A stretch of DNA of 64,000 nucleotides from Kiritimatiellia bacterium (GTDB lineage Bacteria > Verrucomicrobiota > Kiritimatiellia > RFP12 > UBA1067). Shown piece by piece: positions 1-5,621 of this stretch. The stretch is from positions 64,001 through 128,000 of the forward strand of contig JBMNFY010000010.1 in assembly GCA_050949565.1 (NCBI GenBank), read 5' to 3'. Under the pieces are notes generated by a model, which was not told where the DNA came from, did not search any database, and saw only the letters and a list, made by a program, of their open reading frames with translations. Position 1 is the stretch's first letter. Every line of letters starts with the position of its first letter. A program made the translations under genes and the position numbers.

Positions 1-626
1 CATTCCTGCGCTTTGGCTACGCGCATCCGAACAACATCTGGACGTGGCAATTTCCGAAAACGGGTGAGGGGGCCGACAATGCCTTCATCGATCAGACACG
101 CCGCTACGGCGACTGGGACATGGGATACCTCCGCTCCAATTCGGGCGTTTGCCTGATTGTCGGGGACGAGATCCGCTTTTACTACACGGGCTTTGCGGGC
201 GACAAAGCGAAGGCGGATGACGGCCAACAGAACGTCCTCACCAGCGGTATGTATGCGAACGGAGCGATGGGCTTTGCGACGCTGCGCCGCGATGGCTTCT
301 GTTCGCTTCAGGACGGCACCGTTGTTACGCGTCCTCTCTTTTTTACAAAAGGCGACCGGCTCTTTATCAATGCCGATGTAAAAGCCGGCGAACTTGTCAT
401 CCGTGTCGCGCAGGACGGCAAGACCTTCGGGGAGAAGCGCTTGGCCAACGTCGATTCGACGCGGCTGGAGGTCGGCGCGCTGGAACCGCGCAAGCCGTTC
501 ACGCTTACCTTCACGGCATCGGGTGGCGCGAAGCTCTATTCATTCTGGACCTCCGATGAGTCAGGCAAGTCGGGCGGTTATCTCGCAGGTGGCAGTCCCG
601 ATTGCGCGATGCTGCGGGATCTGTAA
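1..626 (+). CDS. 5'-truncated glycoside hydrolase-like protein (beta-propeller GH32/GH43-like C-terminal part)
   Basis: Frame open from the window start (FLRFGYAHP...) into ORF 120..626; EIRFYYTG...GFATLRRDGF and LFINAD motifs. Confidence 0.6.
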   Translation, partial: FLRFGYAHPNNIWTWQFPKTGEGADNAFIDQTRRYGDWDMGYLRSNSGVCLIVGDEIRFYYTGFAGDKAKADDGQQNVLTSGMYANGAMGFATLRRDGFCSLQDGTVVTRPLFFTKGDRLFINADVKAGELVIRVAQDGKTFGEKRLANVDSTRLEVGALEPRKPFTLTFTASGGAKLYSFWTSDESGKSGGYLAGGSPDCAMLRDL

Positions 627-637
627 GAGGCATCGCC

Positions 638-2452
638 ATGAATTCCCGCGTACAGTTTTGTGAAGCATTGTTGACGCGCTTGATGGGTTTGCGCGATGCG
701 GATACCGGCGTGTGGAGCGGCGAGTTGGCATCGAGCGCGCTCTCGACCGCGCTTGCCGCTATCGCGTTGGCAGGTGAGGACGAGGCCCACAACCGTCTGG
801 CGGCCGACGGAGCAGCGTGGCTGGTTGCCCACGCCAATCCGGACGGCGGCTGGGGGGACACGTCGGCGAGCCCCTCCAACCTCAGCACGAGCCTGATCAG
901 CCGTGCCGCCCTGCGTGCGTTGGCGCGGCGCGGTTTGATCAGCGGAAAGGTGTGCGAGGCCGTTATGGCACAGGCCGACGCTTGGCTTGCCGCGCGTCTG
1001 AAAGGAGTCGCGACGCCGGAGCGGATCGCGCAGGCTTTGGGTGAGGTGTACGGCGACGACCGGACCTTCGCCGTGCCGATCTTGGCGTTTCTCGCCATGT
1101 GCGACGACAAGGAGGAGGCGTGGCTGCATGTTCCGCCGCTTCCCTTTGTGCTGGCTTTGTTGCCGCAAGGGCTCTACCGCTTCTTCCGCTTGCAGGTGGT
1201 CAGCTATGCGTTGCCGGCGTTGATCGCGGTGGGCCTGTGCCGTCACATTTGTGTGGCGCGTGTGCGCGGTCGGCGGCCTGGCTGGCGTTGGCTGGCGGGC
1301 GCGTTGCTGCGACGGCTTGAAACGTTGCAGCCGTCGCACGGCGGCTTCCTCGATGCAATCCCGCTGACCGCATTCGTCTGTCTTGCATTGCAGCACGCCG
1401 GTTTTGGCGACTGTGCGGTCGCGCAAAAAGGGTATGCGTTTTTGCGTCAGTCGGTACGGACGGATGGCAGTTGGGCGATCGACTCCAACCTCCGCACATG
1501 GGTGACGTCGCTGGCGACGCGTGGCGTTGTCGCGGCGCGTTCATGGTTGCCGAACGGCGACACGCTGGTGCCACGCGCGGAACTGGAACGGATTGCCGAC
1601 TGGCTGATATCGGTTCAACTCAAGCGCCGTCATCCTTTTACTGGCGCGGCACCGGGGGGGTGGGCATGGACCGATCTGCCGGGCGGCGTTCCCGATGCCG
1701 ATGACACCTCCGGAGCGTTGGTGGCGTTGAAACGCCTGCAACAGGCGGGATGTGTGGCCGAGGTGATTCCCGCCGTTCGCGCCGGTGTGGGCTGGTTGCT
1801 CGGGTTGCAGAACCGTGACGGCGGTCTGCCGACCTTCTGTCGCGGTTGGGGGCATCTGCCGTTCGACCGGAGTTGTCCTGACATCAGCGCGCACGCATTG
1901 GCGGCATGGGCGGCGTGGCGGGATGACGACATCTGGACGCTGGACGAAAAGCGTCGTCTCGATATGGCGATACAGCATGTTGCGGAGTACCTCAAACGCG
2001 AACAGCATGCAACGGGCTGCTGGATAGCGCTCTGGTTCGGCAACCAAGAGGCGGCGCAAGGCAGAAATCCGGTGGTGGGGACGGCGCGGGTGGTGGATGC
2101 GCTGCGTGCCGTGCGGCGATTGCTGACCGAGGCCGGGATGGCGACCGAGGTGGAAGCGATGCTGTCGGCGGGAGAACGCTGGTTGATAGAGGCGCAGCAG
2201 CCAGACGGCGGCTGGAGCGCGGGCACGACCGCCACGGCCGAGGAAACGGCGCTGGCCGTGATTGCGCTGGCTGGCGGCTCGGACGCTTGTGTTGACGCGG
2301 CGCGTCGTGGCCAAGCCTGGCTAGTGGCCGCCGGGCGTGACGAAGGCTACCGGCCGTCACCCATCGGACTTTATTTTTCGTTGCTCTGGTATCACGAAAA
2401 GCTCTATCCGCTGGTGTGGCCGCTGGATGCGTTGTCGTCAGTAATCAGTTGA
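638..2452 (+). CDS. shc: Squalene-hopene cyclase / prenyltransferase-squalene oxidase repeat protein
   Basis: GGWAW...PDADDT (DxDD catalytic motif); QW repeats NPDGGWG, QNRDGG, QQPDGGW; ATG 638 after GAGG. Confidence 0.85.
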   Translation: MNSRVQFCEALLTRLMGLRDADTGVWSGELASSALSTALAAIALAGEDEAHNRLAADGAAWLVAHANPDGGWGDTSASPSNLSTSLISRAALRALARRGLISGKVCEAVMAQADAWLAARLKGVATPERIAQALGEVYGDDRTFAVPILAFLAMCDDKEEAWLHVPPLPFVLALLPQGLYRFFRLQVVSYALPALIAVGLCRHICVARVRGRRPGWRWLAGALLRRLETLQPSHGGFLDAIPLTAFVCLALQHAGFGDCAVAQKGYAFLRQSVRTDGSWAIDSNLRTWVTSLATRGVVAARSWLPNGDTLVPRAELERIADWLISVQLKRRHPFTGAAPGGWAWTDLPGGVPDADDTSGALVALKRLQQAGCVAEVIPAVRAGVGWLLGLQNRDGGLPTFCRGWGHLPFDRSCPDISAHALAAWAAWRDDDIWTLDEKRRLDMAIQHVAEYLKREQHATGCWIALWFGNQEAAQGRNPVVGTARVVDALRAVRRLLTEAGMATEVEAMLSAGERWLIEAQQPDGGWSAGTTATAEETALAVIALAGGSDACVDAARRGQAWLVAAGRDEGYRPSPIGLYFSLLWYHEKLYPLVWPLDALSSVIS

Positions 2453-2848
2453 TGACAGGGATGTGCGGGGATCATGCGCTTCTGGTGAAAAGGGGGATGC
2501 GGTGTTTGGACATGATTATTGTGCACGCGCGGCGCGATGGCGCTAGGCAAGTGCCGGCTTACGAAATCTGCGGTGACAAGAGCCGCGCTGTGCGCGGGTC
2601 GCGGCACCGCTTTTTCTCTGCGTTACGCACGGAAACACTCCCCACTCCTACTCAAAAGCGGCGTCGCGCGGAATACCGCTCGCCGCCGCACTCCAGATCA
2701 TTTCGCCTCGAATCTATCCGGGGAGAGATATGACTTTTTCCACACCTTTTAAGCCGCAATGCCGCACAAAGACTACTTCAGCAGTTTGCATATACCTAGC
2801 GGGCAAGCCCAAAGATTAAGGGTTCGCGGCGGGCAATATAATGTGCGC

Positions 2849-2877
2849 TTGACCGCAGCCGTCAGAACGAATATTGT
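2849..2877 (+). promoter_or_regulatory. sigma70-like promoter upstream of the cassette
   Basis: TTGACC-17 nt-TATTGT. Confidence 0.5.
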
Positions 2878-2959
2878 TTGAGAGGCGATGGGAACTGCCC
2901 GCTCCTTCGCGAGGTAGGCTCAATAACACTGTTCGGCAGAAGAAGGAAAGAGAAGCAAT

Positions 2960-3187
2960 ATGAATAGACTCAAGCGTTACACAGTCAAAGCATCGTTCGG
3001 CGAGTCATACCTGATCGTCGGAGAAGCGGACGCTACCGCATGGCTTGCCGCAGTCATGGCACTCAACAATCGAGGCAAAGCCGTGGCTGAGCTGATTCGC
3101 GGCGATTCCGAGACAGATATCATGGCGAAGTGCCGTGATTGGGTGGCAAAGAATATCGAGAAGGCAGCAGTCATCACGCAACAATAA
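2960..3187 (+). CDS. Hypothetical 75-aa cassette protein
   Basis: ORF with purine-rich RBS (AAGGA) about 22 nt after GTTCGGC. Confidence 0.7.
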   Translation: MNRLKRYTVKASFGESYLIVGEADATAWLAAVMALNNRGKAVAELIRGDSETDIMAKCRDWVAKNIEKAAVITQQ

Positions 3188-3210
3188 GACTAACTAGAAG
3201 GAGAACGACC

Positions 3211-3734
3211 ATGGGACTCGGAGGCGCAACATAGGTGGTGTAATCGGCGGATTCATCGGCAGCATATTTGGACCAGTCGGCACTGGTGTAGGCGCGACAC
3301 TCGGCGCAATGCTGGGTGGCGCGTCAGGCGGAGAAGATAAGACTATAGACCCGATACCGGAAGGGGCAATTCATATCGAACGTGAGTCGCCCATTCTGGG
3401 CGGTGACAAGAAGTTGAGGGAAAAACTGTTTCTTGAGTATGTCGGTGGTGACATCCGCCTGATGATTGACAAAGGCACGGAAACCCCTGTACAGGTCAGT
3501 CACATCTGTTCGACAACGCAAGATAACCAGACGACTTTTTCCTTGCGCGTTCGGCGCGGAAAATCCGCGAGCGAAAACCTCTGCCTTGGCACAATCCAGG
3601 TTCAGGACATCGCTCCGGCACCATCAGGCGGGCCACAGATCAAAGTCACCCTTGCGGTAACACAGGACGCAAACATTCATCTGTACGCCATCGATACAAA
3701 TCCGGCACACGCAATCAAACTCCAAAGATCATAG
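3211..3734 (+). pseudogene. Glycine-zipper + Hsp70/DnaK substrate-binding-domain protein, frameshifted at ~3230 (or intact from ATG 3309)
   Basis: AAGGAG + ATG 3211 MGLGGA, continuing in the 3309 frame as IGGVIGGFIGSIFGPVGTGVGATLGAMLGG; C-terminal IDKGTETP...STTQDNQT...ENLCLG...IAPAPSGGPQIKVT resembles the DnaK SBD. Confidence 0.7.
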
Positions 3735-3738
3735 CAGA

Positions 3739-3781
3739 GCCGAACCAGAGCGTGAACCGAGGGTCACGCTCGACGTTCCCT
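3739..3781 (+). other. attC-like recombination site (43 bp)
   Basis: GCCGAAC-5 nt-CGTGAACC-GAG-GGTCACG-6 nt-GTTCCCT; arms GAGCGTGA(A)CC / GGTCACGCTC with one extrahelical base; begins 4 nt after the stop codon. Confidence 0.7.
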
Positions 3782-3787
3782 CGCCCC

Positions 3788-4066
3788 TCACCTCCTGCCA
3801 TTGTCCCGGTATACCTGCCCCATGCCTGTGTCGCGCCCGTCTTCCGGCCCGACAAACGCCCATTTGAACGTGCCGGGCTTTCTGACCCACAGGCCGTGGT
3901 TGAACCGGAACGACTCGAACTTCTCCGCCATGCGCTCTGAAATCGGGTACGGCACATCCCCCGGCTTCAACAGAACAATGTGCATGCCAGGCATGTTCTT
4001 GACCGGCCAGAATCTGGCCGTTTCGGGATACCCGCCCCTGGGCATGTTGGGGTCTTGCTTCATCAT
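3788..4066 (-). CDS. Hypothetical protein or gene fragment (92 aa)
   Basis: Third positions mostly G/C; upstream part of the track ORF runs into a repeat, so ATG 4066 used. Confidence 0.45.
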   Translation of the reverse strand: MMKQDPNMPRGGYPETARFWPVKNMPGMHIVLLKPGDVPYPISERMAEKFESFRFNHGLWVRKPGTFKWAFVGPEDGRDTGMGQVYRDNGRR

Positions 4067-4230
4067 CGCGGGTGGCGGCGTGACATCAGACGCGTTCCCG
4101 CCGCCTTTTTCAGCGGGCGTGGACGCCCGCGCCTGACTGCGCGCACACAAAACACGCACCCGACTCGCATGCCCCCTGCCACTAACCGACGCCACTAACC
4201 GCGGATTACAAAAATCCAAAAATCACGCGG

Positions 4231-4259
4231 TTGACAGGACCCTCAAGATTCACTACACT
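4231..4259 (+). promoter_or_regulatory. sigma70 promoter of the tRNA
   Basis: TTGACA-17 nt-TACACT. Confidence 0.8.
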
Positions 4260-4273
4260 TCAAACACTTTTTC

Positions 4274-4349
4274 GGCGGGTTAGCTCAGTTGGTAGAGCAT
4301 CGGAATCATAATCCGCAGGTCGGGGGATCGTGACCCTCACCCGCCACCA
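4274..4349 (+). tRNA. tRNA-Met(CAT), probably elongator, CCA encoded
   Basis: Acceptor GGCGGGT/ACCCGCC-ACCA; D arm GCTC/GAGC; anticodon loop ATCATAA; T-loop ATCGTGA. Confidence 0.93.
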
Positions 4350-4354
4350 TTTTC

Positions 4355-4389
4355 AGGGCTTGTTTACGACGGTAGACAAGCCCTTTTTT
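4355..4389 (+). terminator. Rho-independent terminator
   Basis: AGGGCTTGTTTAC-GACG-GTAGACAAGCCCT followed by a T run. Confidence 0.85.
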
Positions 4390-4444
4390 ATTTCAATCAC
4401 ACGGCATTAAGGTACAATGATAAAGCCAAAACGAGGAGAATGAA

Positions 4445-5621
4445 ATGATGCCGTTGTATGTTCATTTTGGTGCGGGGAATATCGGGCGCGCGCTGGCCGG
4501 GCCGATTTTTAGCCGGGCCGGTTATCAGGTGCTTTTTGTGGATGCGGTGCCGGAGATTGTGCGTGCGTTGCACGAGCGGCGCGAGTACCGCGTGGTCATC
4601 AAGGATACGTTGCCGCCCGGGACGCCGGACTCCTTTATGGTGACGGGGGTAGACGGTATCGATGTGCGCGATCAGGAGAGCGGTCAAGGCGGCGGTGGCC
4701 CGCGCCGATTTGATCGGTACGGCGGTGGGTGCGGCGCATCTGCCCAGTGTGCTGAACGCAATCGCGGCGGGGCTTCCGGAACGCGAAGGACGGCCGGTTT
4801 CATTGCTCTTCTGCGAGAACCTGCACGGCCTCGCCCGCATGGCGCGCGAGACGCTGAGCCGCGCATTGCCTGAGGATTTCCCGCTCGACCAGCAGGTCGG
4901 TCTGGTCGAGACCAGCATCGGCAAGATGGTGCCGTTGATGCCGCAAGAAGTGCGGCGCAATGATCCGCTGGAGGTGTGGGGGGAGGCTTACAACGCGATC
5001 ATCGCGGATCGCAACGGGTTTGTCGGGCCGGTGCCTGACGATATCGAGGGGCTATTGCTCAAGCAGTGTTTCCAGGCTTACGTCGATCGCAAGCTCTACA
5101 TCCACAATCTCGGGCACGCCACCTGCGCTTATCACGGTTACTTGCGCGGCCACGCGCTGATAGACGATGCGATGTGCGATCCCGCCGTGTTGGCCGAGAC
5201 GGAGGCGGTGATGCAGGAGTCGGCGCGTGCGTTGGCGCGGCGCTATCCGCAGGAGTTGGACGCCGCTGGATTGGCGGAGCATGTGGCGGACCTGTTGCGG
5301 CGCTTCGGTAATCAAGCGTTGGGCGACACCGTCTTCCGCGTCGGACGCGACCTGCGGCGCAAGCTGGCGCCGGGGGATCGGATGATCGGCGGACTGCGTT
5401 TGGTGCAATCCGAGCAGGGGGACATCGCGCCGGTCTGTCGCGCGATCGCCGCAGCGTTGCAGTTTGCGGCGACTGACGAAACGGGCCAGCCCTTCGCGCC
5501 TGATGTCGCCTTCCGTGTGCGTCTCGCAGAGGAGGGGGCGGAGGCGGTGCTGTGCGCGCACAGCGGTCTGGATCCCATGCGCGATGCCGCAGCGTTGCGA
5601 TTGATTGCTGCGGGAGGTTGA
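4445..5621 (+). pseudogene. mtlD: Mannitol-1-phosphate 5-dehydrogenase family, frameshifted at ~4679
   Basis: HFGAGNIGR in ORF 4445; TAVG, CEN, RKLYIHNLGHA, RVGRD..RKL in ORF 4662; frames switch at GAGAG. Confidence 0.85.

Follow-up and report, generated by a model that had tools for sequence, protein, structure and literature searches.

A probable relic integron platform with an orphan attI site and a single gene cassette in a Kiritimatiellia bacterium

How a single gene cassette can come to lie behind a promoter-like site with no integrase gene beside it is the question raised by the locus between the squalene-hopene cyclase gene shc and tRNA-Met in a 64,000-nucleotide stretch of DNA from a Kiritimatiellia bacterium (hereafter the window; contig JBMNFY010000010.1, positions 64,001 to 128,000). 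An initial annotation of the window, every listed sequence feature of which was found in its place, interpreted this element, termed here cassette A, as an integron-like cassette that an integrase acting in trans had put into a chromosomal hairpin unrelated to attI. Based on comparisons with the other contigs of the source genome (G000, of which contigs C17, C20, C7, C15 and C10 are mentioned below), with related genomes and with metagenome contigs, window positions 2708-3790 are very probably the relic of an integron platform, which consists of an attI site, a promoter-like site and a single cassette with two small genes and a short attC, which has lost its integrase gene intI by deletion, and which would be served in trans by the integrase (IntI) encoded on C17.

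In the proposed mechanism, ordinary integron recombination would have brought cassette A to its site and could also take it out again; in this process, IntI would bind double-stranded attI and folded single-stranded attC and exchange strands between G and TT (written G|TT). Recombination at G|TT would give a cassette that starts with TTCGGC and carries the complement GCCGAA at the base of its own attC. IntI itself would come from the one complete integron of G000, on C17, the attI of which is 80% identical to that of the window, and the promoter-like site inside the window attI would transcribe cassette A. The features of the locus are collected in Table 1.

Table 1. Coordinates of the features of the shc-tRNA-Met locus in the window
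Feature	Position	Strand	Remarks
shc, squalene-hopene cyclase	602-2452		Pfam SQHop_cyclase_C/N
intI remnant, 35 nt	2708-2742	-	part of the N-terminal extension, about codons 69-80 of the C17 IntI open frame
attI region, orphan copy	2743-2933	+	crossover G2931|T2932; docking site and promoter region
Promoter-like site TTGACC-17-TATTGT	2849-2877	+	points into cassette A; 9/12 consensus positions; activity predicted from consensus match only
Hypervariable attI patch	2851-2900	.	contains the left arm of the proposed hairpin (2879-2895)
Cassette A, 844 nt	2932-3775	+	G|TT on both sides; unrelated 613-nt cassette there in G004
ORF-A, 75 aa	2960-3187	+	intact
ORF-B	3211-3734	+	glycine-zipper N-terminus and Hsp70 substrate-binding beta-like domain; frameshifted
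attC of cassette A	3739-3781	+	R'' GCCGAAC 3739-3745, spacer CA, L'' 3748-3755, loop 3756-3763, L' 3764-3771, spacer GAC 3772-3774, crossover G3775|T3776
Distal flank	3776-3790	.	with G3775 forms the right arm of the proposed hairpin; holds the orfX stop codon (3788-3790, -)
orfX, 93 aa	3788-4069	-	marks the distal end of cassette arrays
tRNA-Met	4274-4349

The target site and the lost integrase gene

Judged by homology, the target of cassette A is an attI site and not the non-attI, hairpin-type site of the initial annotation. Window positions 2743-2940 match C17:749936-749742 with 79.9% identity over 199 columns (blastn), and this C17 segment abuts the only true integron integrase gene of G000, which is divergently oriented; the exact block common to the two attI copies measures 32 nt. 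The same element adjoins full-length intI in three further genomes (G001, G009 and G018). In a MAFFT alignment of seven attI copies, the homology stops in the window and in the six others at ...GGCTCAATA[A/G]CACTGTT, and the bases past the crossover differ in every copy (TTCGGC, TTGGGG, TTCGAT, TTCGAC, TTAGCC, TTATGC and TTGAAG). A common CACTG|TT end followed by divergent bases is the pattern of attI crossovers with different first cassettes. A weak third match in G000 to the 195-nt attI element was seen at C7:75219-75303 (73.9% over 88 nt).

All of intI that adjoins the window attI is a 35-nt remnant, which is 94% identical (blastn) to C17:750138-750172 within the 494-aa IntI open frame; compared with C17, the window lacks 201 nt (C17:749937-750137) and all further intI sequence. 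The gene is replaced by dispersed repeats, and no insertion sequence (IS) element was seen in the shc-attI interval of the window. The initial statement that no integrase lies nearby is borne out, as the window contains no integron integrase match to TIGR02249 above the cut-off, and the TIGR02249 matches of C10, at 321 kb, also fall below it. A scan of the whole genome with this hidden Markov model gave five matches, one of which passes (358.6 bits vs a cut-off of 265; C17:750483-751412), so that G000 has one true IntI; a 448-aa part of this protein, with a score of 287.9 bits, contains PF13495 and PF00589. The integron integrases of the clade possess a conserved N-terminal extension of about 180 aa without a Pfam match (L014:1693-2240 corresponds to residues 1-183 of the C17 IntI), the reading frame of which begins at the edge of the attI region; the IntI of G009:C66 lacks residues 69-160. 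IntI relatives with the same long extension were found at 34 loci, in metagenome-assembled genomes (MAGs) labelled Kiritimatiellia, Verrucomicrobia or Lentisphaerae, with a few other labels.

The promoter that had been noticed just upstream of the cassette is present as a promoter-like site, and it is a conserved part of attI instead of a chance resident promoter: the TTGACC box is kept in all seven aligned attI copies, and in every one of them a -10-like hexamer follows after 17 nt, so that in place and orientation these elements correspond to a Pc promoter. No significant fold was obtained for the 3' part of attI (z +0.48), as fits an attI site, which is recombined as a duplex (restated in a preprint, bioRxiv 10.1101/2022.09.11.507474).

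The alternative of the initial annotation, in which an IntI acting in trans put the cassette into an attG-like or secondary site formed by a pre-existing non-attI hairpin (2879-2895 with 3775-3790), has to be weighed against these findings. The complementarity itself exists, with 15 of 16 positions paired plus one bulged base (local inverted-repeat score 23), and it is nominally unusual, this score being reached by 2/2000 dinucleotide shuffles with 60-nt flanks, 13/2000 with 100-nt flanks and 54/2000 with 150-nt flanks, which places it marginally above chance. Furthermore, the hypothetical empty site folds with -13.7 kcal/mol (z -2.36; 9/500 shuffles as good), and cassette insertion outside att sites is documented in the same preprint (bioRxiv 10.1101/2022.09.11.507474). 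On the other hand, 39/6000 and 157/6000 genome-sampled flank pairs of the same spacing (0.65-2.6%) reach the same score, on its left, cassette A begins at the crossover that this attI homologue shares with the other copies, and the 3' part of the homologue has no significant fold. The left arm also falls into a hypervariable patch that differs between attI copies (the nearest patch type being that of L071 and L037), and it is kept neither in the other aligned copies nor in the sister genome G004, despite an identical right arm and a cassette there; in the equivalent G004 empty-site construct, the closing stem is not formed. Part of the left arm (ATGGGAAC) is common to the L071 attI, and the remainder is not. 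In view of the attI homology, the hairpin, which is specific to G000 and marginal against both kinds of control, is very improbable as the target; most likely, the long-range pairing arose by chance within the hypervariable attI patch, or it is at most an unexplained local peculiarity.

Cassette A and its attC site

The crossover sites of cassette A are G|TTCGGC at 2931|2932 and G|TTCCCT at 3775|3776. GCCGAAC at 3739-3745 is the exact complement of GTTCGGC at 2931-2937, so that the R'' of the attC matches the start of its own cassette (R') at seven of seven positions, and the ends of the circular form would pair as initially proposed. These borders are more than a chance pairing because they match homology breakpoints that were obtained independently, namely those of the comparison with G004 and of the alignment of the seven attI copies; recombination of integron type at G|TT is in this respect upheld. 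The attC forms a hairpin with an 8-bp stem (3748-3755 with 3764-3771) and, folded as DNA, reaches -11.1 kcal/mol (z -2.51; 2/200 shuffles as good). Its spacers are asymmetric (2 nt vs 3 nt), as in related arrays, and 3739-3781 is the only attC-like site of the family layout near the locus.

The same architecture recurs in relatives. The C17 attI is followed by low-G+C cassettes, the attCs of which follow the same rule relating R'' to the cassette start. When 13 further cassette junctions, traced in the arrays of G000:C17, G001, G009, G005, L068 and G004, are added to that of the window, 13 of 14 cassettes start with seven bases exactly complementary to their own R'' (the exception, with two mismatches, being cassette B of G004), a count that is not independent since several junctions were chosen by this very complement, the window's being fixed by homology breakpoints. 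AAC...C-GTT is common to 13/13 aligned attC sites, and the layout of the window attC, AAC-[2 or 3 nt]-stem...stem-[3 or 4 nt]-C-GTT, is that of 12 attCs in related arrays, the 5' spacer being one base shorter than the 3' spacer in most sites of the family. The closest attC to that of the window is also the next shortest in the family, the 55-nt site L022:717-771, with nearly the same ends. The cassettes of neighbouring arrays encode RelB+YafQ, a bPH_2 membrane protein and a DPPY methyltransferase, which are typical integron contents.

Cassette A, with a G+C content of 0.51-0.575 (0.60-0.71 in shc), carries two open reading frames (ORFs). ORF-A is single-copy in G000 and has no Pfam or NCBIfam match. 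ORF-B matches PF00012 (E 2.1e-12, residues 67-159 vs profile positions 395-489), and DnaK models also match. Its ATG frame (3211-3231) ends at the TAG of 3232-3234, and the remainder is read in the frame of 3231-3734; a homologue, P0002, starts with MGLGGATVGGVIGG and unites both frames of the window, from which it follows that ORF-B is frameshifted at codon 8. The ORF-B family is very rare, with three clusters among about 5.8 billion, one of which is the window's own truncated product. Among genome contigs, the search for ORF-B homologues gave just one DnaK-like match, in a Peptococcus record, and no context for cassette A.

A genome-wide search by motif (AAC, spacer, stem of >=5 bp, spacer, CGTT) gave sites that resemble the family attCs, judged by eye, at the window, at two places on C17 and at C20:120620-120676. 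At C20:120339-120676, a small low-G+C gene is followed by this attC-like site of the family layout, which ends at G|TTGGGC and adjoins a transposase-like gene (about 119100-120070; IS30-type by eye). This could be another cassette cluster of G000 that has no integrase.

Cassette difference between sister genomes, assembly soundness and the dead-relic alternative

The sister genome G004 belongs to the same genus as G000, and the flanks of the locus on its contig G004:C3 are 98-100% identical to the window (45-50/50 per bin on the left and 50/50 on the right from 3775, the distal flank being 100% identical from that position on). Between about 2935 and 3774, G004 carries an unrelated 613-nt cassette B at the same two junctions, with the right breakpoint exactly at G|TTCCCT and the left at ...CACTG|TT. 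Among the 41 genomes checked for both cassettes, cassette A is present in G000 alone and cassette B in G004 alone (1/41 each; G004 is 78% complete), so that the cassette content of a fixed site differs between related genomes. No difference separates the two genomes in the intI remnant or in the repeats upstream of it, and the deletion therefore predates their split. An IntI of 359 bits is encoded in G004 on another contig, C108. A different cassette at the same junctions, together with an IntI elsewhere in the genome, makes a trans-acting integrase likely, in agreement with the agent that had been proposed initially; in G000 it is likely, by the same reasoning, that the C17 IntI acts in trans on the orphan attI. 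The difference in cassettes between G000 and G004 could have arisen by IntI-mediated exchange or by differential excision after the loss of intI. An empty attI junction was not found in the relatives, in one of which (G005:C302) the whole 1.8-kb shc-tRNA-Met interval is missing.

Several observations weigh against this interpretation. The attC of cassette A measures 43 nt in its circular form, compared with 55-87 nt in 12 relatives, and its L stem lacks a bulged base. RNAalifold on MAFFT alignments of the family attCs, in which the stems were out of register, gave no pairs and no covariance model, and the genome-wide motif scan gave 50 matches vs 40 in the reversed genome, which makes it unspecific. 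The activity of TTGACC-17-TATTGT as a promoter is a prediction from its match to the consensus. In addition, the divergence between the window and G004 begins at about 2820, some 110 nt inside attI before the crossover, and the last three bins on the left fall to 45/50, 32/51 (the hypervariable patch) and 28/36. A simple IntI-mediated swap does not explain a divergence that begins inside attI; it calls for a patch that changes at a very high rate or for the replacement of the cassette and part of attI in one tract. Finally, cassette A, with its frameshifted gene, looks fixed across 19 metagenome runs from 15 studies, and the platform may be inactive now.

The last point rests on metagenome runs that hold at least half of the sampled cassette A words, 19 in number and derived from 15 studies (wastewater, digesters, bioreactors, landfill and pig gut), five of the runs being flagged as possible sources and not independent. 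In four runs from four studies, contigs cover 2905-4238: run X3 holds it whole with one difference, X9 whole from 2906 with none, X14 in two pieces (0 and 1 differences), with one of its contigs covering 2904-3515, and X17 in parts with gaps, one of them 3082-3342. None of these contigs has an indel, and those of all four runs cover the frameshift site of ORF-B; the frameshift is thus not an assembly error of G000. A joint 2931->3776, or any other excision or circle joint, was not found in the contigs of the four runs, a result that speaks for neither side, as contigs drop rare forms. In each of the four runs, 2436 is also joined to 4209 through 36 nt of other sequence (with sides of only 30-37 letters), so that the 1.77-kb interval is missing, similar to the compact arrangement of G005; this joint probably comes from co-occurring relatives and has no bearing on cassette excision.

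The same contigs bear on the possibility that the join of the shc-side attI to cassette A is a chimera made in assembly through the short identical attI block. Logan unitigs do break at 2904-2933 in 4/4 runs, and the intI contig C108 of G004 ends within its own attI, exactly before the identical, conserved block. However, this block has merely 32 nt, less than an ordinary read, and contigs that contain the patch (2589-2933; X3 and X17) overlap by about 29 nt with those that contain cassette A (from 2904-2906; X3, X9 and X14). G004:C3 independently shows the order shc-attI-cassette-orfX-tRNA, and it is itself not a chimera of two loci, since the patch of C108 differs from its own. An artefact of this kind is hardly credible.

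A more serious alternative, though a rather unlikely one, is that the locus is a dead relic on which no integrase has acted since intI was lost, and that G000 and G004 differ through homologous recombination of a whole-locus allele or through a difference that predates the spread of the deletion. It is the start of the divergence inside attI, about 110 nt upstream of the crossover, as would be expected of an allelic replacement tract, that keeps this explanation alive; the frameshift of ORF-B in independent assemblies, the recurrence of cassette A in so many runs and studies, and the lack of an alternative joint at the cassette borders also speak for it. In contrast, the right border falls exactly at the attC G|TT, with 50/50 identity from the first base after it, and the remnant and upstream repeats show a deletion that is shared while the cassettes differ. 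Moreover, both genomes possess an intact IntI elsewhere, and the last 37 nt of attI are conserved (35/37 identical in G004, and with the 32-nt exact match to C17).

Orphan attI copies are not confined to the window. The 28-nt 3' block of attI occurs in eight stretches of the species collection, and 11 distinct attI copies were examined (L069, with an IntI 99.8% identical and the same first cassette, was counted as the same copy as G000:C17). Seven adjoin intI (C17, G004:C108, G001:C123, G009:C66, G018:C329, L037 and L068), and four have no neighbouring intI in the available sequence, namely the window, G004:C3 (20 kb), G005:C202 (4 kb upstream) and L071 (6.7 kb upstream). The upstream breakpoints differ among these four copies, and the 3' crossover block stays conserved. 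A bolder reading, which we regard as speculative and improbable, is that integrons are distributed in these bacteria, one IntI serving several satellite attI-promoter platforms scattered in the chromosome, the cassettes of which, one or a few at each platform, would be expressed there and turn over between near-identical genomes, so that orphan attI sites would be maintained expression docks and not products of decay.

Known systems and the setting of the locus

Single (SALIN) or clustered (CALIN) attC sites lacking a neighbouring integron integrase have been described (IntegronFinder 2, PMC9024848; bioRxiv 10.1101/2022.09.11.507474), and with one attC and no IntI nearby, the window locus is a SALIN by definition. 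It shares with such loci the single attC-bearing cassette, the lack of an IntI within several kb and the presence of a complete integron elsewhere in the genome. In contrast to them, it retains a recognisable attI and a promoter-like site, by which its origin through integrase loss can be shown. Integrase loss is the classical proposal for the origin of CALINs. In the survey by Cury et al. (PMC4889954), intI pseudogenes were near just 15/279 CALINs, and attI is stated to be unknown for most integrons and hence not searchable. Orphan attI platforms escape standard tools, since attI is known in no more than a few classes of integron (PMC4889954).

With a sedentary chromosomal integron, the window locus has in common an attI from which a promoter-like site points outward, a cassette with G|TT at both borders, an attC of R''/L''/L'/R' type and an IntI in the same genome; it differs in lacking an adjacent intI other than the 35-nt remnant, in holding one cassette, and in the 43-nt length of its attC. 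Clinical class 1 integrons with a truncated intI1 keep attI1 and cassettes, and they likewise have a deleted integrase gene with attI, promoter and cassettes remaining. Unlike these, the window locus belongs to another integron lineage, that of Kiritimatiellia-type MAGs, is chromosomal, and has dispersed repeats in the place of intI. An isolated cassette, possible expression from an upstream promoter and an integrase elsewhere are also shared with insertions at attG, the sites of IntI-mediated cassette insertion outside att sites that were already described along with SALINs (bioRxiv 10.1101/2022.09.11.507474). However, attG sites are unlike attI and attC in sequence and structure, and since the target in the window is an attI homologue, the insertion is not of the attG type.

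The locus is neither a new recombination target nor a new type of mobile element but one of a known kind, and the mechanism first assigned to it is corrected here. It illustrates one route to a SALIN, in which intI is lost, attI and a promoter-like site are kept, and cassette exchange by an IntI encoded elsewhere may be possible, and it documents an integron family in Kiritimatiellia-type bacteria of digesters and wastewater. Among publications mentioning both Kiritimatiell and integron, none treats Kiritimatiellia-type integrons in its title or abstract, and the phrase "orphan attI" was not found in the literature searched.

Distal to the cassette, orfX is single-copy in G000 and has no family match in Pfam or NCBIfam scans. 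Its homologues, with 83-90% nucleotide identity, close the cassette arrays of two other genera, where they follow immediately on a ...CACG|TTGC junction in G009:C222 (behind the RelB+YafQ cassette) and in G014:C53. The homologue in G014 seems to have about 200 aa, and the window copy may be 5'-truncated by a dispersed repeat. The possibility that orfX is itself a cassette in reverse orientation was rejected, there being no R'' (AGGGAAC) upstream of GTTCCC at 4091.

From shc to tRNA-Met, the window contains dispersed repeats (about 2441-2708), the attI and cassette region, orfX on the minus strand and another dispersed repeat (about 4107-4189), and the G+C content of 2701-3800 is 0.505-0.575, compared with 0.60-0.71 within shc. 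An Rfam scan of 2300-4500 gave the tRNA and a chance match to a long non-coding RNA (E 0.92), and nothing for attI or attC. The short dispersed intergenic repeats comprise three modules (window 2441-2517, 2569-2708 and 4107-4189) without an Rfam match, perhaps resembling repetitive extragenic palindromes or miniature inverted-repeat transposable elements. They have well over 100 matches in G000, including tandem copies at C15:27130-29117, and a core within them, roughly 40 nt long (window 2654-2697), recurs with 93-98% identity in genomes from other families of the order. Just 3' of tRNA-Met, at about 4375-4395, synteny between the window and G004 breaks, with identity falling from about 100% to about 40%, and tRNA-Met is on this account probably also an integration site for islands.

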